DNA of 26,032 nt, from the IMG/VR virus record IMGVR_UViG_2565956624_000001, positions 1 to 26,032 of that record; one strand, given 5' to 3'. The notes below the pieces were generated by a model. The model saw nothing but the letters and a program-made list of their open reading frames with translations, was not told the origin of the DNA and searched no databases. Below are positions 3,398-26,032 of the stretch, piece by piece (within the stretch, counting starts at the first letter, position 1; every line of letters starts with the position of its first letter). Position numbers and translations under genes: made by a program. This stretch comes from a virus (lineage: Duplodnaviria; Heunggongvirae; Uroviricota; Caudoviricetes).

Positions 3398-3982
3398 ATG
3401 GCTAAGGGTAAAGGCTTAAAATTGCCTCACTTCAAGATCCCGCTCTTTGAGCATACAACCGTTTTCTTTTGCCCGACCCGCGAGATGTTTTATGAATTTT
3501 GCGAAAAGGCAGGAATTCCGATCGAACCTGATTTCGAACTGGCAGGAGGATTGACGCTTACTTGCACTGGCGAGAAAGGCGGTAACTTCTACGTGATCGC
3601 AGTATTCGACAATGAGTTAGGAACGCTGGTACATGAAGCGGCGCACACGACATTTCACGTTCTAAGTGATGTGGGCGTCGTAGCGACCACTGATCCCAGC
3701 CATCCGGCAAACGAGACTTACGCTTACATGGTAGGCCGTATCTTTGACGCATTCTTCCCCATCCTGGCGGAATCAAATGAAGCACAGGTGGCAGCAATGC
3801 AGGCCGCTGAAGTCGTAGAGAAGGCATTAGAGCAGGCAGAGAAGGCTACTGATGCAGCAGAGCAGGCAGTAGAGCAGGCAGAGGAGCCGAAAGAAGAGAA
3901 AAAACCAGCTAAGAAAGGCAAACGTAAGCCTAAAGCAAAAGATGCGTATGTGCCGCGTGTGATGAGCTTTAAACGAGGCTAA
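3398..3982 (+). CDS. HExxH-motif protein (putative zinc-metallopeptidase-like) with lysine-rich basic C-terminal tail
   Basis: ATG 3398 with AGGAG upstream; 194 aa; motif LVHEAAHTTFHV; C-terminal EQAEKATDAAEQAVEQAEEPKEEKKPAKKGKRKPKAK. Confidence 0.6.
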   Translation: MAKGKGLKLPHFKIPLFEHTTVFFCPTREMFYEFCEKAGIPIEPDFELAGGLTLTCTGEKGGNFYVIAVFDNELGTLVHEAAHTTFHVLSDVGVVATTDPSHPANETYAYMVGRIFDAFFPILAESNEAQVAAMQAAEVVEKALEQAEKATDAAEQAVEQAEEPKEEKKPAKKGKRKPKAKDAYVPRVMSFKRG

Positions 3983-4467: not shown

Positions 4468-4953
4468 ATGGCCCGCACTAAAAAGGCAAAGGCTGACGAT
4501 AAAAAGCCAGCCGCTAAAAAGGTGGGCCGTCCGCATGGTTATACCGAAGAAAAAGCATTAGAAATCTGTGAACTGGTGGCGGATGGTCAGAGTATTAATA
4601 AAATTTCGAAAATGCCTGGTATGCCTACCCGTTCCACAATCCTGAAATGGTTTAGGGATGTACCGGAATTCTCGATCATGTACGCGCGCGCGAAGGAGAT
4701 CGGCTTCGAGGTATTGGCTGATGAAATCATCGATCTGGCTGATGCAGCAGAGAACGCAGATAAAGATCAGTTGCGACGCCACCAACTAATGATTGAAACG
4801 CGCAAGTGGCTACTGGCAAAACTTCAGCCGCGCAAATACGGCGAACGCGTCACACAGGAGATCGTCGGCAACAAGGAAGAAGCGCCCGTTCAGGTTGAAG
4901 TCACGAAAGAAGAGATCGCCCGCATCGTCCAGGAAGTAGAAGACGAGGTGTGA
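4468..4953 (+). CDS. terminase small subunit
   Basis: ATG 4468 with GAGAGGTGA upstream; basic N-terminus with an HTH-like segment (GQSINKISKMPGMPTRSTILKWF); directly upstream of and overlapping the large subunit. Confidence 0.75.
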   Translation: MARTKKAKADDKKPAAKKVGRPHGYTEEKALEICELVADGQSINKISKMPGMPTRSTILKWFRDVPEFSIMYARAKEIGFEVLADEIIDLADAAENADKDQLRRHQLMIETRKWLLAKLQPRKYGERVTQEIVGNKEEAPVQVEVTKEEIARIVQEVEDEV

Positions 4954-4955
4954 TT

Positions 4956-6434
4956 ATGTTGACAATCAAAGAACGAGTTATTCAGTCCAAATGTGAAAAC
5001 GATGGCCTGTTTTTCAACCGCTATTTCTACAAGCAAGCAAACGGTACGAAGATGTTTGTCTCAGGTCATCACATAGCTATCCGCGATGCACTACAACGCG
5101 TTATTAATGGTGAGATAACCCGCCTCATCATTAACATTCCCCCAGGGTACGGTAAAACCATGATCGCTACCATCAACATGATGGCGCGGTCCCTCGCAAT
5201 AAATCCCCGCACAAGATTCCTTCACGTTTCCTATTCCAACAACCTGGCGTTACTCAATTCCTCGACTGTAAGAAACATGATCTGTACGCCTGACTATCAG
5301 GCAATGTGGCCCATGAAGATCCGCAACGATGCCAACTCGAAATCGATGTGGTGGACTGAATACGGTGGCGGCGTGTATGCAACGTCATCGCTGGGCCAGG
5401 TAACTGGGTTCCGTGCTGGGTATATGGAGCCGGGATTTAACGGCGCGTTAATCATCGACGACCCATTAAAACCCGCTGACGCTTACTCTGACGTGGTGAG
5501 AAAGCAGGTAAACACAAACTATAACGACACACTTGCTTCACGTCTGGCAGTGCAAACAACGCCTGTTATCGTCATCATGCAGCGCATCCACTACGATGAT
5601 TTGTCCGGCTACCTGTTACGAGGTGGAAGCGGTGAGAAGTGGTATCACCTTAACCTGCCAGTGAAGATCGACAATAGCGTTGACTACAGGGATTTGTACC
5701 CTGAAAACGAGTTCGCAATACCCATTCCTCACAACCTGCCTGATGGATGGCTGTGGCCTAAAAAGCACAATGACATTCATGAAGCTGGACTGAAAGCACA
5801 CAGGCGGTCATTCGAGGCCCAGTACATGCAGCGCCCGCGTAAATTCGACGAAGAGGGTGCATTGTGGACTGAAGCCATGATAACCGCAGCGCACCGGATG
5901 CAGATAACGCAGGACAAGATCCGCACGGTAATAGCTATCGACCCGGCTACAACATCATCGGAAGAATCGGACGAAACGGGGATCGTTGCATGTTCCGCTT
6001 ACGGTGGCGGTAAAAATGCTCAGTATTCTGTTGATGGCGACTACTCAGGCCGTATGTCTCCTAACGACTGGGCGCAGGCATCAATGAACGCCTACAACAT
6101 CCATGAAGCTGACGCGATAGTTATCGAAACAAACCAGGGCGGCGAAATGGCAGAGGCCACGCTACGTAACGCCGGATTCAAAGGCCGCATTGTTAAGGTG
6201 CACGCAAGCAAGGGTAAATTCGCCCGCGCCGAGCCAATATCGGCACTGTATGCACAGGGAAGGGTGGCCCACACAGGCAGCCTGTACACGCTGGAAAATC
6301 AAATGATGGAATACGTTCCAGCTACCGCTAAAAAATCACCTGACCGCCTCGACGCAATGGTATGGGGTATCACTGAATTAAGCCAGCCGCAGGCAATGGG
6401 CCTCATGTTACCTAAGCGCCTGCGCGGATTTTAA
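4956..6434 (+). CDS. terminase large subunit (ATPase/nuclease)
   Basis: Walker A-like PPGYGKT and DE-type IIDDPLK motifs; about 490 aa; position between small terminase and portal. ATG 4956 has GAGG 8 nt upstream; the track start at 4950 is GTG. Confidence 0.88.
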   Translation: MLTIKERVIQSKCENDGLFFNRYFYKQANGTKMFVSGHHIAIRDALQRVINGEITRLIINIPPGYGKTMIATINMMARSLAINPRTRFLHVSYSNNLALLNSSTVRNMICTPDYQAMWPMKIRNDANSKSMWWTEYGGGVYATSSLGQVTGFRAGYMEPGFNGALIIDDPLKPADAYSDVVRKQVNTNYNDTLASRLAVQTTPVIVIMQRIHYDDLSGYLLRGGSGEKWYHLNLPVKIDNSVDYRDLYPENEFAIPIPHNLPDGWLWPKKHNDIHEAGLKAHRRSFEAQYMQRPRKFDEEGALWTEAMITAAHRMQITQDKIRTVIAIDPATTSSEESDETGIVACSAYGGGKNAQYSVDGDYSGRMSPNDWAQASMNAYNIHEADAIVIETNQGGEMAEATLRNAGFKGRIVKVHASKGKFARAEPISALYAQGRVAHTGSLYTLENQMMEYVPATAKKSPDRLDAMVWGITELSQPQAMGLMLPKRLRGF

Positions 6435-6465
6435 AATCTGCCTCACAATCACTCACTAATTTTTC

Positions 6466-6490
6466 TATTTTTCGCGTAGCAACGCGTAAA
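6466..6490 (+). promoter_or_regulatory. conserved motif copy 1: TATTTTT-CGCGTA-GCAA-CGCGTA-AA, upstream of the portal gene
   Basis: Near-identical to the copy at 18805-18829; CGCGTA direct repeat with 10-bp centre spacing. Confidence 0.4.
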
Positions 6491-6512
6491 CATGTATTCA
6501 GGAGTAAACATT

Positions 6513-7883
6513 ATGCCATCCAATTTAGAATTGGCGGTTAATGCTGCCTTGTCACAACGCCAGGCGGCCTTTGCCCGCTATGCAGCCGCTAACCCATTCT
6601 CAATGGGTATTGATGCAAAACGTGACGCTGCGTGGAGTGAATACGGATTCAAAGAAGAAATCACCTATGAAGATCTTTACAAGCTGTATCGTCGCGGTGG
6701 TATCGCTCACGGTGCCATTGAGAAGATCATTACTACGTGCTGGCGCACCAGGCCAACGCTGATTGAAGGTACGGAAGACGAGAAAACAGAAACGGAAACG
6801 CCGTGGGAAAGAGAAATTAAAAAGCAATTTGATAATCGTTTCTGGCGCGTCATAGCTGAATGCGATCGCCGCCGCCTCATCGGTCGTTATGCGGGCCTGT
6901 TAATTCATGTCAGAGATAATAAGCCGTGGGATCAGCCAGTAACAAAAGGCGTAGGCATTGCCAAATTCACCCCTGTGTGGGCTGGTGCTCTTACGCCGAA
7001 GGACTTCGAAGAAAACCCGGATAAAGAAAACTATGGCCTGCCAACATGGTGGGAATACAAAGAACGCATTAACAGTAAGACCATTGCGAGAAAGATCCAC
7101 CCTGATCGCATATTCATATTTGGCGACTATTCTGATGATGCCATCGCTTTCCTTGAGCCTTCCTATAACGCCTTTGTGTCACTGGAGAAAGTGGAAGGCG
7201 GCAGCGGTGAGTCATTCCTGAAAAATGCCGCGCGTCAACTGGCTATCTCGTTCGATAAAGAGATTGATTTCCGTTCCCTGGCTGCAACATACGATTGCGA
7301 CGTTACAGAGCTACGCGAGAAATTCAACGAGGCAGCAGCAGAAATGAACAGGGGTAATGATGTGATGATGGCATTACAAGGGGCAAGTGTTAGCCCGCTG
7401 GTGACTGCCGTAGCCGATCCATCTGCAACCTATGACGTCAACCTGCAAACTGCCGCCGCTGGTATCGACATCCCGACGCGTATCCTGGTTGGGAATCAGC
7501 AGGGTGAACGCGCATCAACTGAAGACCTCCGCTACTTCAATAATCGCTGTATGACCCGCCGCGAGGAAATAGGAGGCGAGCTTGAAGAACTATTCCGCAA
7601 GATGGCAAATCTCCGCCTTATCGGTATGCCAGTAGACGTATCTGTACTGTGGGACGACCTTAACGCCATGACCAAAGCCGAACTACTGGAAGCGGCACAC
7701 AAAATGGCGCAAATCAATCAGGCTTGCCTGGCTACTGGTGAAGAAATATTTAGCGGTGACGAGATCCGCGAGGCTGCCGGATACGATGGCCCAGCCAGTG
7801 TAGTGGAAATGGAAGAGGAAAACGATGATGAAGGTGAAGAAAATAATCAGGCGAATACCTCCCGCCGCGATAATGCCATCTAA
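6513..7883 (+). CDS. portal protein (putative)
   Basis: 456 aa, acidic C-terminus, immediately downstream of the large terminase; ATG 6513 with AGGAG 8 nt upstream (the track start is 6492). Assignment rests mainly on synteny and size. Confidence 0.65.
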   Translation: MPSNLELAVNAALSQRQAAFARYAAANPFSMGIDAKRDAAWSEYGFKEEITYEDLYKLYRRGGIAHGAIEKIITTCWRTRPTLIEGTEDEKTETETPWEREIKKQFDNRFWRVIAECDRRRLIGRYAGLLIHVRDNKPWDQPVTKGVGIAKFTPVWAGALTPKDFEENPDKENYGLPTWWEYKERINSKTIARKIHPDRIFIFGDYSDDAIAFLEPSYNAFVSLEKVEGGSGESFLKNAARQLAISFDKEIDFRSLAATYDCDVTELREKFNEAAAEMNRGNDVMMALQGASVSPLVTAVADPSATYDVNLQTAAAGIDIPTRILVGNQQGERASTEDLRYFNNRCMTRREEIGGELEELFRKMANLRLIGMPVDVSVLWDDLNAMTKAELLEAAHKMAQINQACLATGEEIFSGDEIREAAGYDGPASVVEMEEENDDEGEENNQANTSRRDNAI

Positions 7884-12572: not shown

Positions 12573-13046
12573 ATGCCACTGAAAGGCGTCAGACGTGTCC
12601 GTATGAAAATGACGGAAGAAATCAGGAATATAGCAGACAAAAAGACTTATGAAGTGCTATGGATTGTTGGCAATGTCGCGTCCGGCCTTGCATCTGGAAT
12701 GACGCCAGTTGATACGGGTTTTTTAATTAACAGCATGTACCAGACTGTCGAGAAAAACGGCAACGGCCTTTGCCTCAGGGTTGGATATACCGCCCGCTAT
12801 GCTGAATGGGTGCATGACATGCCAGGGACATTAATGGGACAGCCTCGCGAGCATTTCGGGAAAACCAATAACCTTTCAGATTTCGGCCCGAAACAGGTAG
12901 TTGAGTTCGGCGGCGGTACTGGTAAGGGTTACTACTGGGATCCAAACGCTGAACCTGAATTTTTGCGCAAGGCGTTCGAGGAACCAGATAATTTTAATGA
13001 GATCTGGAACACGATTAAACTTGGGTACTGGACGAAACAATCATGA
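12573..13046 (+). CDS. tail component, HK97 gp10-like (putative)
   Basis: ATG with GGAGG 7 nt upstream; 157 aa; position in the head-tail joining block. Confidence 0.45.
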   Translation: MPLKGVRRVRMKMTEEIRNIADKKTYEVLWIVGNVASGLASGMTPVDTGFLINSMYQTVEKNGNGLCLRVGYTARYAEWVHDMPGTLMGQPREHFGKTNNLSDFGPKQVVEFGGGTGKGYYWDPNAEPEFLRKAFEEPDNFNEIWNTIKLGYWTKQS

Positions 13047-15050: not shown

Positions 15051-15710
15051 TTAATTCCAGTTGCAAGCGTTTTTCACTTTGTCGATGTGGTTATAAAGAC
15101 CATCAATGTTAAACACTGCTTTCTCAATGTCGCCAGCTTCCGGCACTACTTCAATGATGAATTGTTTTTCGTTAACCAGTTTTTTAATCATTGGGATGGC
15201 TTTTTTGCCGTCCCATAATCCAAGAGCTTTATAATTAGTTGACCGCCACCACTCAGTAGCTACAGCTTTGTGAACGCCGATCCGGTAGTTAATATAAGTA
15301 GTGTCCCCGGCGTCAGTTACATGGTGTGACCATGCTACGAACATTTTTGTTTTATTACCCTGGCAAGCGATTGTTAATACCGGTTTATTCTTATCCTGTG
15401 CCTTCAGTGTCGGGAAAGCATCAAGACTTCCGCTGAATTGTTCTGCTTTCACAAAAAGGAATACGTTTTTTGCGTCCTGCATATCATCTTTTCTTTCAAC
15501 TACAAGCCACTGTTTACCAGCATTTTCTTTTTCTAACTGTGCATCGTATGCGGCTTGTTTTGCTTGTTGTTCTGCAAGCCATTTAGCATTTTTCTCTGCT
15601 AATGCTTGTTGCTCTTGATTGGTCACTATAGGCGCTTTTTCATTATCCTCATTGCAACCAACCAGACCCAATACCGCCGCAATCATTGCCACTTTTGCTA
15701 ACCGTTTCAT
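15051..15710 (-). CDS. lipoprotein, function unknown (moron)
   Basis: Signal peptide plus lipobox LVGC (MKRLAKVAMIAAVLGLVGCNE); 219 aa; first gene of a two-gene minus-strand operon. Confidence 0.55.
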   Translation of the reverse strand: MKRLAKVAMIAAVLGLVGCNEDNEKAPIVTNQEQQALAEKNAKWLAEQQAKQAAYDAQLEKENAGKQWLVVERKDDMQDAKNVFLFVKAEQFSGSLDAFPTLKAQDKNKPVLTIACQGNKTKMFVAWSHHVTDAGDTTYINYRIGVHKAVATEWWRSTNYKALGLWDGKKAIPMIKKLVNEKQFIIEVVPEAGDIEKAVFNIDGLYNHIDKVKNACNWN

Positions 15711-15756: not shown

Positions 15757-15798
15757 TTATACAAAATGGAGTCATTGAAGTAAAGCCATTTTGTATAA
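15757..15798. promoter_or_regulatory. 13-bp perfect inverted repeat in the divergent intergenic region between the lipoprotein operon and the tape measure gene
   Basis: TTATACAAAATGG (15757-15769), 16-nt spacer, CCATTTTGTATAA (15786-15798); overlaps an AT-rich -10-like TATAAAAT. Confidence 0.4.
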
Positions 15799-15837: not shown

Positions 15838-18180
15838 ATGGCTACCAGTGTAGGTACAATTTATTACGAAGTTGATGCGAAAACTGGTCAACTTCTCGTT
15901 GCACAACGACAGGCAGACCAGGCCTTTGATCGTATAGAGCGCGGCGCAAAACAGGCTGACCGCCAGGTAAACACCCTGAAAACATCCATCAAGGCACTGA
16001 CCAGGGTTATCCATCTGCTAATTGCTGCGGAGGCTGTGCGCCAATTTATGGATATGGCGGAGCAAGCAAAAATGCTTCGCGTAAAAATCAAAATGCTTAC
16101 GGGCGATGCGGAGTCCGCCGGACGGGTTTTCGACGGCCTGAAAGCAATATCCAGGGAGACGGGGCAGAGCCTGAAAGATACTGGCGAATTATGGCAAGGC
16201 CTGGCTATCTCACTAAAAAACACCTCCGCTACGGAAGGGCAATTGCTTAACCTGGTTGGCACTATTCAGAAAATGGGTGCATTAGGCGGCGCGTCAGCGG
16301 AACAGATGTCTAACTCAATGCGTCAATTCCGTCAGTCTATCGACGGCGGTGTTCTTCGTGCCGAAGAATTTAACAGCCTGCTTGAAAATACGCCGACCAT
16401 CGTACAAACAATGGCCCGCCATATGGGATTATCAATGGGCCAGTTCCGCGCCGAAATGCTGGACGGCAAGATCACGGCTGAAAGGATGGTTAACGCAATA
16501 CAGGCGGCTACGCAGGAAACAAACGATAAGTTTGCTCAGTTGCCGCGCACATCCGGCATGGCTATCAATGAGCTTAAAGTAGAAATTATGGGCCTTGTTG
16601 AGCAGTTGGATGATCTTTTTGGCGTGTCAGATGGCGTTGTTTCAGCTATCGACTTGATCACGAAAGGCGTTAAAGGGCTTGGCGATGGCGCTAAATTCGC
16701 TAAAACCTGCTTCGACACACTCAAAACGGCTGGTAGCGAATTTATCGACATGTTTGATGATGTGGCTGTTAAGGCTGGAGAGGTGGCAGAGAAGATCATC
16801 GCAATGGTGACGCCAATCAAGGCGCTAATGGATGGCTATAAATGGATGAAGGAGGTAGTAGGAGAGCAAACCGACGAATATAACAGCAACTACGAGAAGA
16901 AATACGGGAAGACCGTTGGCAAGGTCATGCAACTACAGGATGATCTGACCGCAGCAATCCAGGCTACAGAAGAAGCAAGGAAAAATGAACAGAATGCTGC
17001 CAATGACGGAGCGATTACCGGATTCGACAAGCCAGTAGACAAGCCGAAAAAACAGAAAAAAGAGAAGAAATCGGAAGCTGATCGGCTTGGTGACAAAGGT
17101 ATAAGCGTTTCTGATCAGTACAACAAAGACGCCGCCGCCATGCGCAAAGCGTTGGAGAACGGCAAGGCCATTGATGCTGCATTTGCCCAGGGTAAAATCA
17201 CGCTCCTTGAGTACCGCGCCGCGCAAAAAGGGATCGGCAAGGAACTGAAAGAAGAATTAGCACAAATTCCGGTAGATGAATTGCGTGATAAATGGTCACA
17301 AATAGTAAGCCCGATGGATCAGCTAAAAGGCGAAGTTGACCCCATCCAGCAGGCGCAAAATGAATGGGCCATCCGTAAGCAAATGCTTATAGACCTGGGC
17401 GCTACTGAAGCGCAACAGAAACAGGAATTGTTAGCCTATGAGCAACAGATCCGCGATCTGAAATGGGAACAATGGCAGGCGCAAAGCGACACAAACGGCC
17501 TTATCGGTGATTGTGTTAATGGCCTTAAAGGCGGAATGAGTAATGCGCTTGTTGGCCTGTTAAACGGCACTCAATCATTGAGTGATGTTTTTGCTAACTT
17601 AGGAAGCAATATACTCGGCAATATCGGTAACAGACTCTCAGACATAGCTGCAAACTGGATAGCAGATCAGATCATGATGGAGACACAAAGCAAGGCCACG
17701 CAAACAAGTACAACAGCAAGCGCGGTAGCAGCTCAGGGAAGCATTGCTGCGGCGGCGGCCCCAGCAGCGGCGGCAACTGCGGCGTCAACTGGCGGTAGCT
17801 GGGCGGCGGCTGGTTCGGCGGCGCTCACTGCGATCATGTCGCTGGCTACGTCAATTTTCGGCGGCGGTCGCTTTAATGGTGGTAGCGTCATTGGTGGTAA
17901 TATGTACCGCGTAGGGGAACACAACAGGCCGGAGCTATTCCAGACATCTAACGGCAATCAATATATGATCCCTGGCGAGAACGGCAGAGTTATTCCGGGC
18001 CGTGATATTGGCGGCGGTGGCGGTATTAGTATGCCTGTCAGTATCAGCATTCAGACCACGAACGGATTCAGCGACGAAGACAGCCGCAGACTTGAATTAA
18101 CAATGGAACGTGTAGCCATGAAAATGATAACAAGGGAATCTCAAAGACCAGGCGGAATGTTGCAACCTCGCCGCAAATAA
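15838..18180 (+). CDS. tail tape measure protein
   Basis: 780 aa; largely helical/coiled-coil composition with a Gly/Ala-rich hydrophobic segment (AAAAPAAAATAASTGGSWAAAGSAALTAIMSLATSIFGGG); located just upstream of the gpM/L/K/I/J homologues. Confidence 0.85.
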   Translation: MATSVGTIYYEVDAKTGQLLVAQRQADQAFDRIERGAKQADRQVNTLKTSIKALTRVIHLLIAAEAVRQFMDMAEQAKMLRVKIKMLTGDAESAGRVFDGLKAISRETGQSLKDTGELWQGLAISLKNTSATEGQLLNLVGTIQKMGALGGASAEQMSNSMRQFRQSIDGGVLRAEEFNSLLENTPTIVQTMARHMGLSMGQFRAEMLDGKITAERMVNAIQAATQETNDKFAQLPRTSGMAINELKVEIMGLVEQLDDLFGVSDGVVSAIDLITKGVKGLGDGAKFAKTCFDTLKTAGSEFIDMFDDVAVKAGEVAEKIIAMVTPIKALMDGYKWMKEVVGEQTDEYNSNYEKKYGKTVGKVMQLQDDLTAAIQATEEARKNEQNAANDGAITGFDKPVDKPKKQKKEKKSEADRLGDKGISVSDQYNKDAAAMRKALENGKAIDAAFAQGKITLLEYRAAQKGIGKELKEELAQIPVDELRDKWSQIVSPMDQLKGEVDPIQQAQNEWAIRKQMLIDLGATEAQQKQELLAYEQQIRDLKWEQWQAQSDTNGLIGDCVNGLKGGMSNALVGLLNGTQSLSDVFANLGSNILGNIGNRLSDIAANWIADQIMMETQSKATQTSTTASAVAAQGSIAAAAAPAAAATAASTGGSWAAAGSAALTAIMSLATSIFGGGRFNGGSVIGGNMYRVGEHNRPELFQTSNGNQYMIPGENGRVIPGRDIGGGGGISMPVSISIQTTNGFSDEDSRRLELTMERVAMKMITRESQRPGGMLQPRRK

Positions 18181-18184
18181 ACTA

Positions 18185-18214
18185 AACCCCGGTGCAATGC
18201 CGGGGTTATTTTTC
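18185..18214. terminator. intrinsic terminator after the tape measure gene, possibly bidirectional
   Basis: AACCCCGG-TGCAATG-CCGGGGTT hairpin followed by ATTTTTC; the reverse strand is also U-rich after the stem. Confidence 0.6.
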
Positions 18215-18266
18215 GTATTTATAAACGACCATTCCGCGCGATATATCCCCTTTCGAATATCTCGAC

Positions 18267-18521
18267 TCACTTATGAGTGCCTTTCACGCCACATAACTTG
18301 TTATAGGCATGGTGCTCAACAATTAACCAAACCTTCAAATCTTCGCTAAACAGCCTCCAATCAAGATTGATATCCATTTTGTATCCGTAACCGTCGCGTA
18401 ACTTTTTGGGGTAAACTTCTTTTCTCAGAAAGGCTTTAAGTAATTCCTTACCTTTCTTGATGATCCGATCCTGTGCGTTTTTCTGTGCTTTCAGATTTCT
18501 GTCAATCGCTACCAGTTTCAT
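18267..18521 (-). CDS. small basic protein, unknown function (moron)
   Basis: Track ORF, 84 aa, lysine-rich; GGGGTGAG upstream; C-terminus ...WLIVEHHAYNKLCGVKGTHK. A RelE/YafQ-type toxin was considered but is not supported. Confidence 0.45.
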   Translation of the reverse strand: MKLVAIDRNLKAQKNAQDRIIKKGKELLKAFLRKEVYPKKLRDGYGYKMDINLDWRLFSEDLKVWLIVEHHAYNKLCGVKGTHK

Positions 18522-18538
18522 AACTCACCCCATCATCC

Positions 18539-18694
18539 TTAGTTAAGTGCCTTCAGGAAGAAGTCCCGGTATTCATCTTCTTTCGCATTCATCATGAATT
18601 GACCGTATTTGAATGCGTCGTCGAAACCCTTAACGATTGCTATTTCCACTTGTTCGAATGCGTTATTTAGCATTACTACTACATAGCGTTTCAT
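18539..18694 (-). CDS. small protein (51 aa), upstream partner of the 84-aa ORF
   Basis: Hand-translated: MKRYVVVMLNNAFEQVEIAIVKGFDDAFKYGQFMMNAKEDEYRDFFLKALN; GGAGG 8 nt upstream of the ATG; stop lies 17 nt before the next start. Confidence 0.35.
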   Translation of the reverse strand: MKRYVVVMLNNAFEQVEIAIVKGFDDAFKYGQFMMNAKEDEYRDFFLKALN

Positions 18695-18782
18695 TTTGGG
18701 CCTCCTTCGTTGGTACTACTTTCTTCTTGCTTTCTATATACATCTTGTTGCGTGCTATGTGAAGCCATTTTGTAAACTAGCT

Positions 18783-18800
18783 ATAATCATTGTGACAATG
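18783..18800 (+). promoter_or_regulatory. consensus -10 hexamer TATAAT followed by CATTGT-G-ACAATG palindrome
   Basis: TATAAT at 18783-18788 (no good -35 found); 6-bp inverted repeat around a central G at 18788-18800. Confidence 0.3.
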
Positions 18801-18804
18801 ATCT

Positions 18805-18829
18805 TATTTTTCGCGTAGAAGCGCGTAAA
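18805..18829 (+). promoter_or_regulatory. conserved motif copy 2: TATTTTT-CGCGTA-GAAG-CGCGTA-AA, upstream of the gpM-like gene
   Basis: Second copy of the same motif, 35 nt upstream of ATG 18864. Confidence 0.4.
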
Positions 18830-18863
18830 GATATATACAAAATGTAACTTGTGGGGGGGTTTT

Positions 18864-19217
18864 ATGCCGGAAGTGTTCAGATGGACGCCGCAAAGAAGCT
18901 ACAGCGTGACCAGGAAGCCAGACGTATCTGTTGTTAAGCTGGGCGATGGTTATGAGCAAAGACAGGTAAAAGGTATCAATCCATTGCTTGATAGCTACAC
19001 CCTGGTGTTTAAAGGCAGTAGCGCCGGATGTGGTGATGGTGGAAACGTAGCAATCCAGGCGGAAGCATTCTTGAGGGCGCGCGGCGCGGTCGAGGCTTTT
19101 TACTGGTCGCCGTCAATGGATAACGTGCAAAGGCTTTTTGTCTGTCGGCAATGGAGCATGACTAAAGACGGGCCTTTGTACACGCTAAACGCAACGTTTG
19201 AGCAAGTTGTTGGCTAA
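18864..19217 (+). CDS. minor tail protein, lambda gpM-like
   Basis: ATG with GGGGGGGT upstream; 117 aa; ends ...TFEQVVG, matching the lambda gpM C-terminus (EFEQVVN) from memory; synteny with the L, K, I, J homologues. Confidence 0.75.
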   Translation: MPEVFRWTPQRSYSVTRKPDVSVVKLGDGYEQRQVKGINPLLDSYTLVFKGSSAGCGDGGNVAIQAEAFLRARGAVEAFYWSPSMDNVQRLFVCRQWSMTKDGPLYTLNATFEQVVG

Positions 19218-20345: not shown

Positions 20346-20474
20346 AACGCACCTCCGCGCCATTTTGTTAACTATGCTTCCGTTTGAGTAAAATATACAT
20401 ATTGTAAAAACCGCGATCAATCCATTTTGGTATGATTTAGCGTGACGCAGATCACAGAATGACAAGGTGAGAAA

Positions 20475-22399: not shown

Positions 22400-25300
22400 A
22401 TGAGTAGCGGCGGCGGCAAAGCCAAAACACCAACATTATTGAACGATAACCTGTATCACAAACAGTTTTATCGTGTTTTAGATATTCTCAGCGAAGGGCC
22501 GATATACGGTCCGGTAAACCAGAAAGCGCCATTGAATGACGTGATGCTTAATGACACTCCTGTTACTGACGCAAACGGGAATACATCAATTCCGGGGATT
22601 AGTATAGCCTGGCGCAACGGCACGGCTGACCAATCGCCGATTAATGGTTTTAACGCCATTGAGTCAACCGTTATTGTCAACGCAAAGGTAACTCACGACA
22701 CACCAATAATCAGGACTGTTTCAGATCCAAACGTTACCCGCGTCAGGTTGAATCTTGGTGTTGATGCTCTCGTTCAGTCAGATGAAAAGGGCAATCAATA
22801 TAATACATCCGTCATGTTGATGGTTGATGTTAAACCGTCATCATCTTCTACGTGGTCGCTGATTAAAGACATACACATTGGCCCTGGTAAACAAAGCGGT
22901 GAATACCTGGAAGCTCACATCATTAAAGCGCCGGATGAAAAACCGTTTGATATTCGCGTTCGTCGCATAACACCAGACAGCAACGGCGATCTATTGCGGA
23001 ATGATACGCGGTGGAGTAGTTACAGCGAAATAATAGATGATAATCTGTCTTATCCTCATACCGCTGTAGCTGGCGCCGTAATTGACCATGATCAGTATAC
23101 TGATACGCCTACCCGCACCTATCACCTTCGCGGCCTGATTGTTGATGTGCCTGACAACTACAACCCTGAAACGCGCACATATTCAGGTTTATGGCTTGGT
23201 GGATTTAAAAAGGCGTATACCAATAACCCTGCATGGCTTTTCCGGTATCTGGTTAAAAACGAGCGCTTTGGACTTGCTCGACATGCTGGTTACATTGATG
23301 TTGATGATGGCGCTTTGTACGTGCTTTCTCAATACTGCGATCAGTTGGTTGATGATGGCTATGGTGGCCTTGAACCTCGCATGACGCTTAACGCTTACAT
23401 TACGGAGCAAATGAGCGCCCGCGACCTACTGGATAACATCGCAGGTATGTTCCGTGGTATCGCGTTATGGGACGGACAACGTCTTACCGTGATGATTGAT
23501 GCGCCACAAGATCCAATCGCCACCATCACAAATGCAAACGTCGTTGATGGCGCGTTTACTCGTTCAAGTATCGCACGCGCAGAATGCTACAACGCCGTGA
23601 TCGTATCCTGGACTGACCCTGAAAACGGCTGGGAGCAATCAAAAGAATATGTCGCAGATGATAAACTAATCGCCCGTGATGGTTATAACGAAACCACGTT
23701 GGAGGCGTTCGGTTGCACTTCACGCGGGCAAGCGCACCGCGCTGGTAAATGGCTGATCGAAACAGCGAAACGCGAGCCGTCAAAATTCACATTTAAAATG
23801 GCCCGTGACGCCATTCACTTTACGCCGGGGGATATAATCGAGATCCTCGATAATAATCGCGCAGGCGCTCGTTTAGGCGGTCGCATCGTGGCGAACAATG
23901 GCAGAGCGATCACGGTCGACAAGGTTGATTCTGAATATATCGCGGCTGGCGACACCATCAGCTTACTTGATAGCGATGGTAAATTTAAAAAACACCAGAT
24001 CATCGGAGTTAACGGGAACATTATCACCCTTGCAGCCGCCCCGGCGTGGATTCGTAACGGCACTGTTTTTGCTGTATCAACCAACGCAGCAAAACCCGTT
24101 TTATGTCGAATCACCAGTGTAGCAGAAACAGAAAATAACAGCGTATACACCATCGAGGCCGCACAGCATGATCCACATAAGCAGGCCGTAGTCGATAATG
24201 GCGCAATCTTCGAGATCAATAACGACACGCTTAATCACTTCCGCGTGCCGAACATTGAAAATCTGAAGGTGTTAAACGTTGGATCTGAAACGGTTCAATG
24301 TCGCGCAACATGGGAAACACAGACGACAACGCGTCGCCTGACCTTTGAGATTCGCGTGTATAACGCCGAAGGCGCTGTAGTTAAAAGCTACGAAACCACG
24401 AATTACAGTTATGATTTTTATGGCATTGATGCTGGCAACTACTCATTAGGCATTCGTGGCAGAAATGACACGGGCATGAAGGGTGCGGAAAGCATTGTCG
24501 ATCTGGTTATTGGCGCACCAGCGGCCCCAGTTGGCGTTAATTGGGTTCCCGGTGTATTCCAGGCTACAGTTTACCCGATCAGCAGAACAACGCTCACCAC
24601 TGATACCAGTTACGAGTTTTATTACTCAGGTGAAACGCAGATCACTGATCCGGCATCAATAACCACTAAAGCACAATATACCGGGCGTGGTCATCAGTGG
24701 ACGTTTGGCGGCATGAATACAGGTCACACATATTACGTTTATGTGCGCGCGCGTAACGCTTTTGGTGTGTCTGACTTTGTGGAAGCGTCAGGTAAGCCAA
24801 CAGAAAACTTTGATGAAATTACCGATTACGTCACCAAAGACGTAATGAATTCCAAACAATTTAAAGAAATGGTTGGTGACATTAAAGATCTAGGCGACCG
24901 CACTGATCTTATCGAAAGCGCTACGAATGACCTTAAAACTGCTACTGACAACCTCAAAGCTGCAACTGATAATCTGACCAACATAACTGACGATTTAAGG
25001 ACTGAAACTGACAACCTAACCATAGAAACAGGATCAATAAAAGCTGATACTGATACGCTCAAAAAAGAAACGGAAGATCTTTATAAAAAAGTTAAGGAAA
25101 ACGCCGATGATATTGGACAGCATGAGTCGAGAATCGACTCGCTGGAGGTGTCTAGCGAAAAAGTTGGCAGCGAACTGGCGCAAGCAAAAGCAAGTCTGCA
25201 AAACGCCTCACTTGCTCTTATTAATAACTCGCTTGCACAGACTAACACTCGCGTAACTCTTACCGCTCAGTACAAGAAAGGCAGGACAGAGACGAAAGCG

Positions 25301-26032
25301 GAAATTGACCGCATTGACAACGTTATCGCTGAAGAGAAAAAAGCGACAGCGGAATCACTGGAAACCATCACGGCAGAAATGAATGTGATGGACACAAACC
25401 TTAAAGGTCAGATCTCTAATGTGCAACGCGCAGTAGCTGACGAGGCCAGCGCCCGCGCTGAAGCTATTAACGGTGTAAATGCCTCAATAAGCAATCTTGA
25501 CAAGAAAACTGACGCCAGCGTAAACCGTCTTGATCAGGCAATTGCAGACGAAACAAGTGCGCGTACTCAGGCTATCAGCGACGTGAACGCAAGTATCTCA
25601 ACACTTGACAAGAAAACTGACGCCAGCGTTAAGCGCCTCGATAATGCAATATCAGATGAAACGCAGGCAAGAAGCGACGCAATAACAGTGGTTAAAGCTG
25701 ATTTAACAACGCTTGAAAATAACACAAATGCCAGTGTTAGCCGTCTTGATCAAGCTATCGCTGATGAATCAAGCGCACGTGCTCAGGCGATATCAGGTAT
25801 CAGCGCGACGCTTGGCGGCGTTAAAAGTGAGGTTGATAAAAACAGCGACGAGATAGATCAGGCGAAAGCAAGTCTGCAAAACGCATCTCTGGCGCTTATT
25901 AATAACTCAATGGCGCAAAGCAAGATGAGCACTGTTATTGAGGCGAAATACAGGAAAGGACAAACAAAAACAAAAGCGGAAATAGCAAGGGTAGACACAG
26001 CAATCGCAGATGAGGCGAGCGCACGCGCAGAA
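22400..26032 (+). CDS. host specificity / central tail fibre protein, lambda J-like (partial, 3' end beyond window)
   Basis: ATG 22400 with AGGAGAAAAACC upstream; hand translation gives an uninterrupted frame of 1211 codons to the window end; J-like N-terminal domain, then a coiled-coil region with internal repeats. Not in the ORF track because it has no stop in the window. Confidence 0.8.
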   Translation, partial: MSSGGGKAKTPTLLNDNLYHKQFYRVLDILSEGPIYGPVNQKAPLNDVMLNDTPVTDANGNTSIPGISIAWRNGTADQSPINGFNAIESTVIVNAKVTHDTPIIRTVSDPNVTRVRLNLGVDALVQSDEKGNQYNTSVMLMVDVKPSSSSTWSLIKDIHIGPGKQSGEYLEAHIIKAPDEKPFDIRVRRITPDSNGDLLRNDTRWSSYSEIIDDNLSYPHTAVAGAVIDHDQYTDTPTRTYHLRGLIVDVPDNYNPETRTYSGLWLGGFKKAYTNNPAWLFRYLVKNERFGLARHAGYIDVDDGALYVLSQYCDQLVDDGYGGLEPRMTLNAYITEQMSARDLLDNIAGMFRGIALWDGQRLTVMIDAPQDPIATITNANVVDGAFTRSSIARAECYNAVIVSWTDPENGWEQSKEYVADDKLIARDGYNETTLEAFGCTSRGQAHRAGKWLIETAKREPSKFTFKMARDAIHFTPGDIIEILDNNRAGARLGGRIVANNGRAITVDKVDSEYIAAGDTISLLDSDGKFKKHQIIGVNGNIITLAAAPAWIRNGTVFAVSTNAAKPVLCRITSVAETENNSVYTIEAAQHDPHKQAVVDNGAIFEINNDTLNHFRVPNIENLKVLNVGSETVQCRATWETQTTTRRLTFEIRVYNAEGAVVKSYETTNYSYDFYGIDAGNYSLGIRGRNDTGMKGAESIVDLVIGAPAAPVGVNWVPGVFQATVYPISRTTLTTDTSYEFYYSGETQITDPASITTKAQYTGRGHQWTFGGMNTGHTYYVYVRARNAFGVSDFVEASGKPTENFDEITDYVTKDVMNSKQFKEMVGDIKDLGDRTDLIESATNDLKTATDNLKAATDNLTNITDDLRTETDNLTIETGSIKADTDTLKKETEDLYKKVKENADDIGQHESRIDSLEVSSEKVGSELAQAKASLQNASLALINNSLAQTNTRVTLTAQYKKGRTETKAEIDRIDNVIAEEKKATAESLETITAEMNVMDTNLKGQISNVQRAVADEASARAEAINGVNASISNLDKKTDASVNRLDQAIADETSARTQAISDVNASISTLDKKTDASVKRLDNAISDETQARSDAITVVKADLTTLENNTNASVSRLDQAIADESSARAQAISGISATLGGVKSEVDKNSDEIDQAKASLQNASLALINNSMAQSKMSTVIEAKYRKGQTKTKAEIARVDTAIADEASARAE
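25465..25790 (+). repeat. three tandem 108-bp (36-aa) repeats inside the J-like fibre gene
   Basis: Repeated peptide unit of type NASIS.LDKKTDASV.RLD.AIADE.SAR.QAIS, three times; a longer repeat (AKASLQNASLALINNS.AQ) recurs at about 25186 and 25861. Confidence 0.6.

Follow-up and report, generated by a model that had tools for sequence, protein, structure and literature searches.

In the lambda-like phages, the late operon is usually pictured as one antiterminated transcript, in which protein ratios are set only by ribosome-binding sites and coupling. Stabilising elements of the leader stem-loop/RNase E type are exemplified by the hairpin in the 5' UTR of Escherichia coli ompA and by the leader processing of phage T4 gene 32, and an AU-rich tract immediately 5' of a GC hairpin is the anatomy of RNase E sites and of 5' stabiliser hairpins. 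Short repeated sites on DNA are known as well, among them the TTGC-N6-TTGC direct repeats straddling a -35 that are bound by lambda CII, and the stoperators of mycobacteriophages, which number tens of sites and match the operator of the immunity region. The CpxR box is a tandem repeat of the form GTAAA-N(4-8)-GTAAA (PMC9603713), and the NagC/Mlc operator is a quasi-palindrome with invariant TT/AA at +/-5,6 from its centre (PMC4288165). The T4-type phages carry PeSLs, numerous mobile promoter/stem-loop cassettes equipped with a strong early promoter and a terminating stem-loop (PMC2839356). In addition, the mEpimmI group of coliphages, said to be common in the human gut, has been described recently, and Gp17 together with three nut sites, all located in the early region, has been reported for the mEp021 group (PMC11893012).

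Herein, a stretch of 26,032 nucleotides from a Caudoviricetes virus (IMG/VR record IMGVR_UViG_2565956624_000001, positions 1 to 26,032), termed the window, was analysed, which is about 90% identical to the temperate coliphages mEp021/mEpimmI and harbors exactly two occurrences of the motif TATTTTTCGCGTAG-N-A-N-CGCGTAAA (sites S1 and S2, Table 1). Direct reading bore out the initial annotation, in which the two 25-mers had been described as differing at two positions, and a 25-mer pair with two or fewer mismatches arose in not one of 100 windows simulated with an order-2 Markov model. The match reported by a repeat finder was 35 nt long at 86% identity (6466-6500 versus 18805-18839, family D16), and homology of the two sites past this core was suggestive yet non-significant (p = 0.06-0.25). 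Neither fuzzy matching nor an nhmmer profile revealed a third copy, even a weak one, in the window or in the complete 54.6-kb genome of mEp021, which contains exactly two copies and nothing else within five substitutions, and no sequence resembling the motif was found in the immunity region. The hexamer CGCGTA, which had been considered under-represented, is in fact found 19 times on the + strand of the window against 9.5 +/- 3.1 expected (15 of them outside the motif), and 7 times on the - strand against 9.9 expected; the companion statement that only single copies occur elsewhere was right, as the window holds no further tandem pair. A string search of the literature for the motif matched cloning oligos only.

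Both copies are sense-oriented relative to the downstream gene, and the assignment of these genes as structural was upheld: S1 precedes the portal gene (PF06381, phrog_146), while the gene behind S2 encodes a minor tail protein of gpM type (PF05939). From the end of the motif to the start codon, the distance is 22 nt for portal (ATG at 6513) and 34 nt for the gpM-like gene (ATG at 18864), in keeping with the 20-35 nt noted earlier. The portal start is supported by a ribosome-binding site (AGGAG, 8 nt upstream), and the first 10 nt of the S1 leader form part of the 35-nt repeat common to S2. At S1, the motif belongs to an invariant block of about 90 nt, which extends through the leader and the ribosome-binding site into the first ~40 nt of the portal ORF. 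The genome of mEp021 (L001 21493-21520) lacks the ribosome-binding-site-proximal portal ATG of the window (ATTATATTG versus ATTATGCC); its annotated portal start is an ATG located 1 nt past the motif, the record's own ribosome-binding-site feature falls inside that ORF, and the true mEp021 portal start may be a TTG.

Table 1. Features of the two motif sites and of a second repeat, with nucleotide diversity (pi) in 50 aligned genomes at S1 and 31 at S2.
Feature	Position	Strand	pi	Description
S1 motif	6466..6490	+	0.013	TATTTTTCGCGTAGCAACGCGTAAA; in the 78-nt spacer from the large terminase stop (6434) to the portal gene
S1 core	6473..6486	+		Direct-repeat reading: CGCGTA, then CGCG of a second CGCGTA that runs to 6488; spacing 10 bp
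S1 core hairpin	6473..6486	+		CGCGU-AGCA-ACGCG; -6.0 kcal/mol, z = -1.3, not exceptional
S1 leader	6491..6512	+	0.007	CATGTATTCAGGAGTAAACATT, with AGGAG ribosome-binding site; most conserved stretch of the region
Spacer directly upstream of S1			0.18	
S1 flanking genes, first and second codon positions			0.014-0.05	
S1 flanking genes, third codon positions			0.22-0.27	
TATAAT	18782..18787	+		Invariant in 31 sequences; 17 nt upstream of S2, outside the repeat
S2 motif	18805..18829	+	0.057	TATTTTTCGCGTAGAAGCGCGTAAA; divergent intergenic region between the reverse ParE-like toxin/antitoxin pair and the gpM-like gene
S2 core	18812..18825	+		Hairpin CGCGU-AGAA-GCGCG with U.G closing pair, or direct repeat CGCGTAG / CGCGTAA
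3' extension of repeat	18830..18839	+		GATATATACA at S2, CATGTATTCA at S1
Leader downstream of S2			0.15	
Spacer adjoining S2			0.23	
S2 flanking genes, third codon positions			0.29-0.32	
Second repeat, window	15778-15790, 18765-18777, 20363-20375, 20424-20433			
Second repeat, mEp021 (L001)	3747-3762, 4502-4517, 12651-12662, 12716-12729			

The conservation of the motif was examined in relatives that had been retrieved independently of it. All 49 contigs collected via the portal protein carry the S1 motif, which is exact in 46 and altered by one change each, in the loop or the T-tract, in the remaining three; likewise, the S2 motif is present in 30 of 30 close relatives collected via gpM, in exact form in 21 and as a variant in 9. 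Both copies thus occupy equivalent positions in every sampled relative, the reverse of the absence that the initial annotation had named as telling against the motif. Among gpM relatives at 67-71% identity the upstream sequences are quite different, and no motif was found in portal relatives at 59% identity or less (Midgardsormr38, ES18 and CobraSix), where the terminase-portal junction is 11 nt long or, as in ES18 and CobraSix, holds extra genes. A pattern scan of IMG/VR for the exact motif gave at least 80 loci, and all of those listed were of S1 or S2 type. The S2 region was detected in 35 of 5,426 complete E. coli genomes. When the usual flanks were excluded, scans of viral contigs returned scattered chance matches, apparently coding, and one member of the group, while a scan of GTDB species representatives returned chance matches only, plus one Planctomycetota MAG (JBAXUS01, ELA667; L215-L247) in which about 20 contigs each carry TTTTCGCGTANNNNCGCGTAAA; this sequence is apparently a palindromic repeat, dispersed and unrelated, whose match to the pattern is accidental.

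Nucleotide diversity in both copies is as low as at first and second codon positions (Table 1), and the S2 motif forms a discrete conserved island, whereas the S1 motif is part of the longer invariant block described above. Judged from these alignments, the element is functional, or at least constrained by purifying selection, which is the firmest conclusion of the analysis; it is best described as a real, selected, lineage-restricted cis-element in late-gene leaders, modest and uncharacterised, orientation-specific and confined to leaders. The functional cis-element premised by the initial annotation is therefore retained.

Conservation of this kind might be ascribed to a shared leader or "linker" cassette that has no dedicated regulatory role, is copied between gene starts and is kept alike by recombination or gene conversion, an account that we consider unlikely. 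It draws on the location of both sites at moron/indel hot spots, on the 25/25-identical copy that a defective prophage carries in a leader otherwise unrelated to these, and on loop variants apparently exchanged between the two sites, since an S2-type loop is found at S1 in L168 and L210 and an S1-type loop at S2 in L105. These swapped loops suggest gene conversion between two copies 12 kb apart, which would be their simplest account. Recombination alone, however, does not account for a diversity 4- to 20-fold below that of synonymous sites and adjoining spacer, and a direct repeat whose copies lie 12 kb apart on either side of essential head genes invites deletion and should be lost unless useful. 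The resemblance to PeSLs, which are likewise conserved short intergenic stem-loop cassettes at junctions of gene gain, loss and swap with signs of exchange between copies, extends to the mosaic-junction location; on the other hand, the motif is present in two copies rather than many, has no terminator function, and is accompanied by a promoter-like -10 at S2 only, so a PeSL-like mobile cassette was rejected.

Several further observations concern the mosaic setting of the two sites. Between the stop codon of the terminase and S1, about a third of the relatives have an insertion of 67 nt (L169 1053-1119; also L170-172, L179, L181, L182, L195-197, L199, L202, L206 and L212), inside which lies a perfect 19-nt palindrome, CTTCGAAAAATTTTCGAAG. 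At S2, which is adjoined by reverse-strand morons, L072 (read as reverse complement) has gained a gene for an HNH/AP2-type homing endonuclease about 30 nt past the motif and ahead of gpM, so that the motif precedes the HNH gene there and not gpM. In the window, two reverse-strand genes at 18267-18694 code for a protein of 51 aa (phrog_29810) and, after it, a ParE-like toxin of 84 aa (PF24732); the pair is probably a toxin/antitoxin moron that has entered between the genes for the tape measure and gpM. The start of the 51-aa gene is overlapped, by ATGA, by an upstream ORF of 25 codons. A CRP-like half-palindrome, TGTGA-N6-TCT(C/T)A, is situated at 18791-18806, between the invariant TATAAT and S2, with TGTGA and TCT near-invariant in 31 relatives, and its centre is about 70 bp upstream of the estimated start of the toxin/antitoxin operon, a class I position. 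The motif itself is unlikely to be the operator of this gene pair: its centre lies about 90 bp upstream of the start estimated for the operon's likely promoter (~18728, as read from the sequence), it is kept where the reverse genes differ (UMNK88), and S1 has no such neighbour.

A third context (S3) was disclosed by the metagenome scan in a rare CPZ-55-like defective prophage of the E. coli eut operon. The S3 motif, 25/25 identical to the S1 type, has an HNH endonuclease gene on one side and, on the other, an ORF of 108 aa, to which it is sense-oriented and whose ATG it precedes by 36 nt. A tail-completion protein (64% identity) and the C-terminus of the tape-measure protein (55%) are shared between this island and the window, which places S3 in a distant, degenerate relative. 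The homologous leader of the sister islands has lost both the CGCG repeats and the hairpin to decay, and no match to an S3-type leader was found in viral contigs. Structurally, the island is an integrase-bearing element of about 11 kb between eutB and eutA (L316 5941-17400, E. coli GCA_051322165.1; also L317 and L318), which encodes HNH, tail-completion and 728-aa tape-measure-like proteins and many ORFans, with no head genes recognised; one variant has the motif and its sister islands a decayed copy. CPZ-55 of K-12 presumably sits at the same eutB/eutA position.

The same bases of the motif can be read in two ways. As a direct repeat, they consist of CGCGTAR units with a 10-bp period; as an imperfect inverted repeat, a reading that was absent from the initial annotation, they form TTTTCGCGT-AGNA-RCGCGTAAA, a hairpin with a 5-bp GC stem and a 4-nt loop, or 8 bp when the flanking U.A pairs between the U tract and the A tract are counted. 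The S2 hairpin has a predicted stability of -6.3 kcal/mol, with the extended stem UAUUUUU/AAAGAUA present in the 77-nt fold. Such stabilities are usual for the composition (z about -1.1 to -1.3), and longer folds are no different from shuffles. In 34 distinct sequences, 98% of the cells pair and no pair is changed on both sides, figures that shuffles equal, the sequences being too similar to inform on pairing. Variation falls on the loop, which is the spacer between the repeats, and on the closing pair (columns 22, 24, 25 and 26 of A2): at least eight loop variants, including AGCAA, AGAAG, AGAAT, AGAAA, AGAGG and GGAAG, and a deletion were found in close relatives, the deletion removing 1 nt of loop or spacer in two contigs (L110 and L111). 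Three stem substitutions were observed, two of which are C-to-T changes (L109/L114; L113) that keep a G.U pair in the + strand RNA only, while the third, a G-to-A change in L253, breaks the + strand pair. Several conserved positions are left unexplained by pairing, namely the TA after each CGCG, the loop-opening UAG with G at loop position 2, and the mismatched, unpaired U just past the stem; their conservation suggests that the sequence itself is recognised, beyond its structure, and favours a protein that reads it on DNA or on RNA. The same is favoured by the stems, which show no difference between the two paralogues and S3. The initial annotation had offered a processing signal beside a regulator site, and the sequence data fit both a protein site on DNA and an RNA signal, and do not separate the two.

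As a site on DNA, the motif would be an operator for a sequence-specific dimeric or tandem regulator, recognised either as CGCGTAR-N3-CGCGTAR or in palindromic form, TTTnCGCG-N6-CGCGnAAA. This protein would be encoded by the phage, or would be a host response regulator of OmpR/CpxR type, and would modulate the expression of portal and gpM or act on it as a roadblock. This option, one of the three offered by the initial annotation, is a serious one, but we regard it as somewhat doubtful. A length of 22-25 bp with 10-bp periodicity is usual for operators, the conserved non-pairing positions and the identical stems in both paralogues and the third context would follow naturally, the confinement to one phage lineage looks as if the reader protein were encoded by that lineage, and at S2 the motif stands just downstream of the invariant TATAAT, a classic position for a repressor. 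Against it, no candidate regulator emerged, as the small ORFs near the sites and between the Q and lysis genes gave no matches to DNA-binding domains; neither the immunity region nor any regulatory gene has a copy in its vicinity, S1 has no promoter to regulate, and the half-site spacing differs by 1 nt in L110 and L111. The CpxR consensus GTAAA-N5-GTAAA is matched at 9 of 10 positions by S2 (GTAGA-N5-GTAAA) and at 8 of 10 by S1 (GTAGC-N5-GTAAA) (PMC9603713), a likeness that is statistically weak, since the window contains 6 one-mismatch boxes against 2.2 expected, and the invariant CGC flanks are unexplained by the consensus. With the lambda CII and P22 C1 sites (TTGC-N6-TTGC) and the CpxR boxes, the motif shares short direct repeats one helical turn apart, but its unit is CGCGTAR instead of TTGC or GTAAA, promoter elements are absent at the required distance, and the two copies are found within a late operon and not at regulatory promoters. 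The NagC/Mlc operator was rejected on account of C/G at +/-5,6 in the motif, and the operator of the Rep021 repressor because the immunity region holds no similar sequence. Stoperators are comparable in being short conserved sites in the spacers of structural operons with orientation fixed relative to transcription, whereas the motif has just two copies in 54.6 kb and none like or near the immunity region, and repressor sites of this type were therefore set aside.

Transcription through the two sites was considered from the gene order. The protein gp37 of mEp021 matches PF03589 (Q antiterminator, Q82-type), and a Q82-type antiterminator in the group, taken with gene order and family knowledge, places both sites probably inside one long late transcript. 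For S1, which has no conserved promoter and directly follows the terminase ORF in the late block, the Q antiterminator likewise points to the interior of an mRNA. Promoter scans for sigma-70 were empty at both sites; S1 shows no conserved -10, its nearest hexamer CACAAT varying among relatives (CACAAC, CACAAA), and the TATAAT at S2 is upstream of the motif and not inside it. The latter, if a real -10, would put the motif at about +11 to +35 of a gpM transcript, though its -35 matches at only 3 of 6 positions. Intrinsic terminators were also rejected, as none was found at 6200-6700, and 18100-19000 holds none but the one already known at 18185-18207; on the + strand the T-run comes ahead of the hairpin, and on the - strand the hairpin is followed by an A-run.

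The phage-specific promoter suggested by the initial annotation is accordingly not supported by these scans, and the mEp021 record has no annotation of a phage RNA polymerase. In a related form, the motif would be an activator site or the core of internal late promoters of the lambda CII kind, giving the portal and gpM blocks starts of their own, which we hold to be highly improbable. The 10-bp-period direct repeat does resemble CII sites, and re-initiation would be useful at S2, which follows a bidirectional terminator and a reverse gene cluster; nevertheless, neither strand has an acceptable -10 at the required distance, a + strand start would fall at or past the portal ATG, and the Q antiterminator makes internal promoters unnecessary.

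The likeness to boxB hairpins, including those of the mEp021 nut sites, is that of a short GC-rich stem of 4-5 bp with a purine-rich loop, on the sense strand and in the same phage group, and the S2 loop UAGAAG resembles the UGGAAGU loop of the hairpin taken as nutR1 boxB (L001). The motif might on this basis be read as a boxB-like hairpin belonging to extra late-region nut sites for the N-like protein Gp17, a proposal to which we attach hardly any credence. No boxA (CGCTCTTTA-like) lies upstream, where the sequence is TTTTTCTATTTTT at S1 and GATCTTATTTTT at S2, compared with CGCTCATTAACAA and TGCTCTTTAAAAA in mEp021 at the sites taken as nutR1 and nutR2. Moreover, the loop, which is the recognition element of boxB and should be conserved, is the most variable part of the motif among close relatives, the motif is located in the late region, and the published count is of three nut sites only, in the early region (PMC11893012).

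We favour, tentatively and with low confidence, an account in which the late mRNA, antiterminated through Q, contains the motif as a sense-strand stem-loop that would affect processing, stability or translation. The motif would thus be a cis-element that precedes portal and the gpM-type tail gene in their 5' leaders and acts in the late mRNA, where it is predicted to fold as CGCGU, a 4-nt loop and RCGCG, with the flanking U.A pairs possibly lengthening the stem. A single-stranded UAUUUUU tract, of the type cut by RNase E, would stand ahead of the stem-loop, and cleavage in this tract, or the mere presence of the stem-loop, may uncouple the downstream cistron from the RNA upstream, which is the terminase message at S1 and about 650 nt of untranslated, antisense-of-moron RNA at S2. 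The outcome would be a hairpin-capped leader that sets the stability or the translation level of a low-copy-number protein. We infer both the action as RNA and the mechanism of cleavage or stabilisation; of an RNase E site with a 5' stabiliser, the anatomy alone (UAUUUUU followed by a GC hairpin) is seen in the sequence.

The stem-loop account is favoured by the sense orientation in three of three independent contexts, 22-36 nt upstream of a start codon, by the probable location of S1 within an mRNA, and by the AU-rich tract that directly adjoins the GC hairpin on its 5' side. The pattern of change agrees with it as well, with variation at the loop and closing pair, tolerance of the 1-nt loop deletion, and preservation of G.U in two of the three stem substitutions; furthermore, the conserved block at S1 extends through the ribosome-binding site into the ORF, as a translation-initiation region would. 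Against these points stand the lack of a compensatory double change in the 34 sequences, the broken pair of L253, the small size and ordinary thermodynamics of the hairpin, the conserved positions that pairing leaves unexplained, and stems identical between the paralogues, which is not required of a purely structural hairpin. No Rfam family matched the window at the gathering threshold, and the hits around both sites were at chance level (E > 1). The leaders of ompA and T4 gene 32 are similar in that a single-stranded, AU-rich stretch is followed directly by a short GC stem-loop, a few tens of nt ahead of the ribosome-binding site; they differ from the present hairpin, which has 5 bp (8 with the U.A pairs) and exhibits sequence conservation beyond structural need.

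A dedicated trans-acting factor of the mEpimmI phages, reading the motif on DNA or in late mRNA and co-regulating two low-copy initiators of assembly, the portal and the tail-tip protein gpM, can also be envisaged, albeit as an improbable reading. Such a factor would act inside the Q-antiterminated late operon, and the copy in the defective prophage would plug one gene into the same circuit. A selected, sequence-specific element placed before just portal and gpM would imply an extra layer of control over proteins present in few copies per virion, for which RNA processing, stability, translation or a bound protein are the candidates, and the motif is a small, easily mutated target for studying the late regulation of mEpimmI phages. 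If it is merely a leader hairpin, the finding is ordinary.

A second repeat, CCATTTTGT(A/T)(A/T)A (reverse complement ACAAAATGG), is located at every junction of reverse-strand moron clusters with forward structural genes (Table 1). At three junctions of the window, hexamers resembling -35 and -10 elements come after it on the minus strand. In mEp021, the copy at 4502-4517 directly adjoins a promoter-like sequence, TTGACT-N17-TATATT, that lies downstream of the repressor gene, and the copy at 3747-3762 adjoins a similar one upstream of that gene. The second repeat looks like the mark of a family of similar promoters for morons and the early operon, which perhaps share an UP element or an operator. 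Elsewhere in the window, positions 15051-15710 (- strand) hold a moron whose 219-aa product has the VasI domain of type VI secretion (PF11319, E = 1e-15); this moron sits between the tail genes and the tape-measure gene and is unusual cargo for a temperate siphophage. Finally, the tail-fibre (gpJ-like) region contains three tandem 108-nt repeats of 74-76% identity at 25496-25791, and a 59-nt repeat pair is found at 25181 and 25859.
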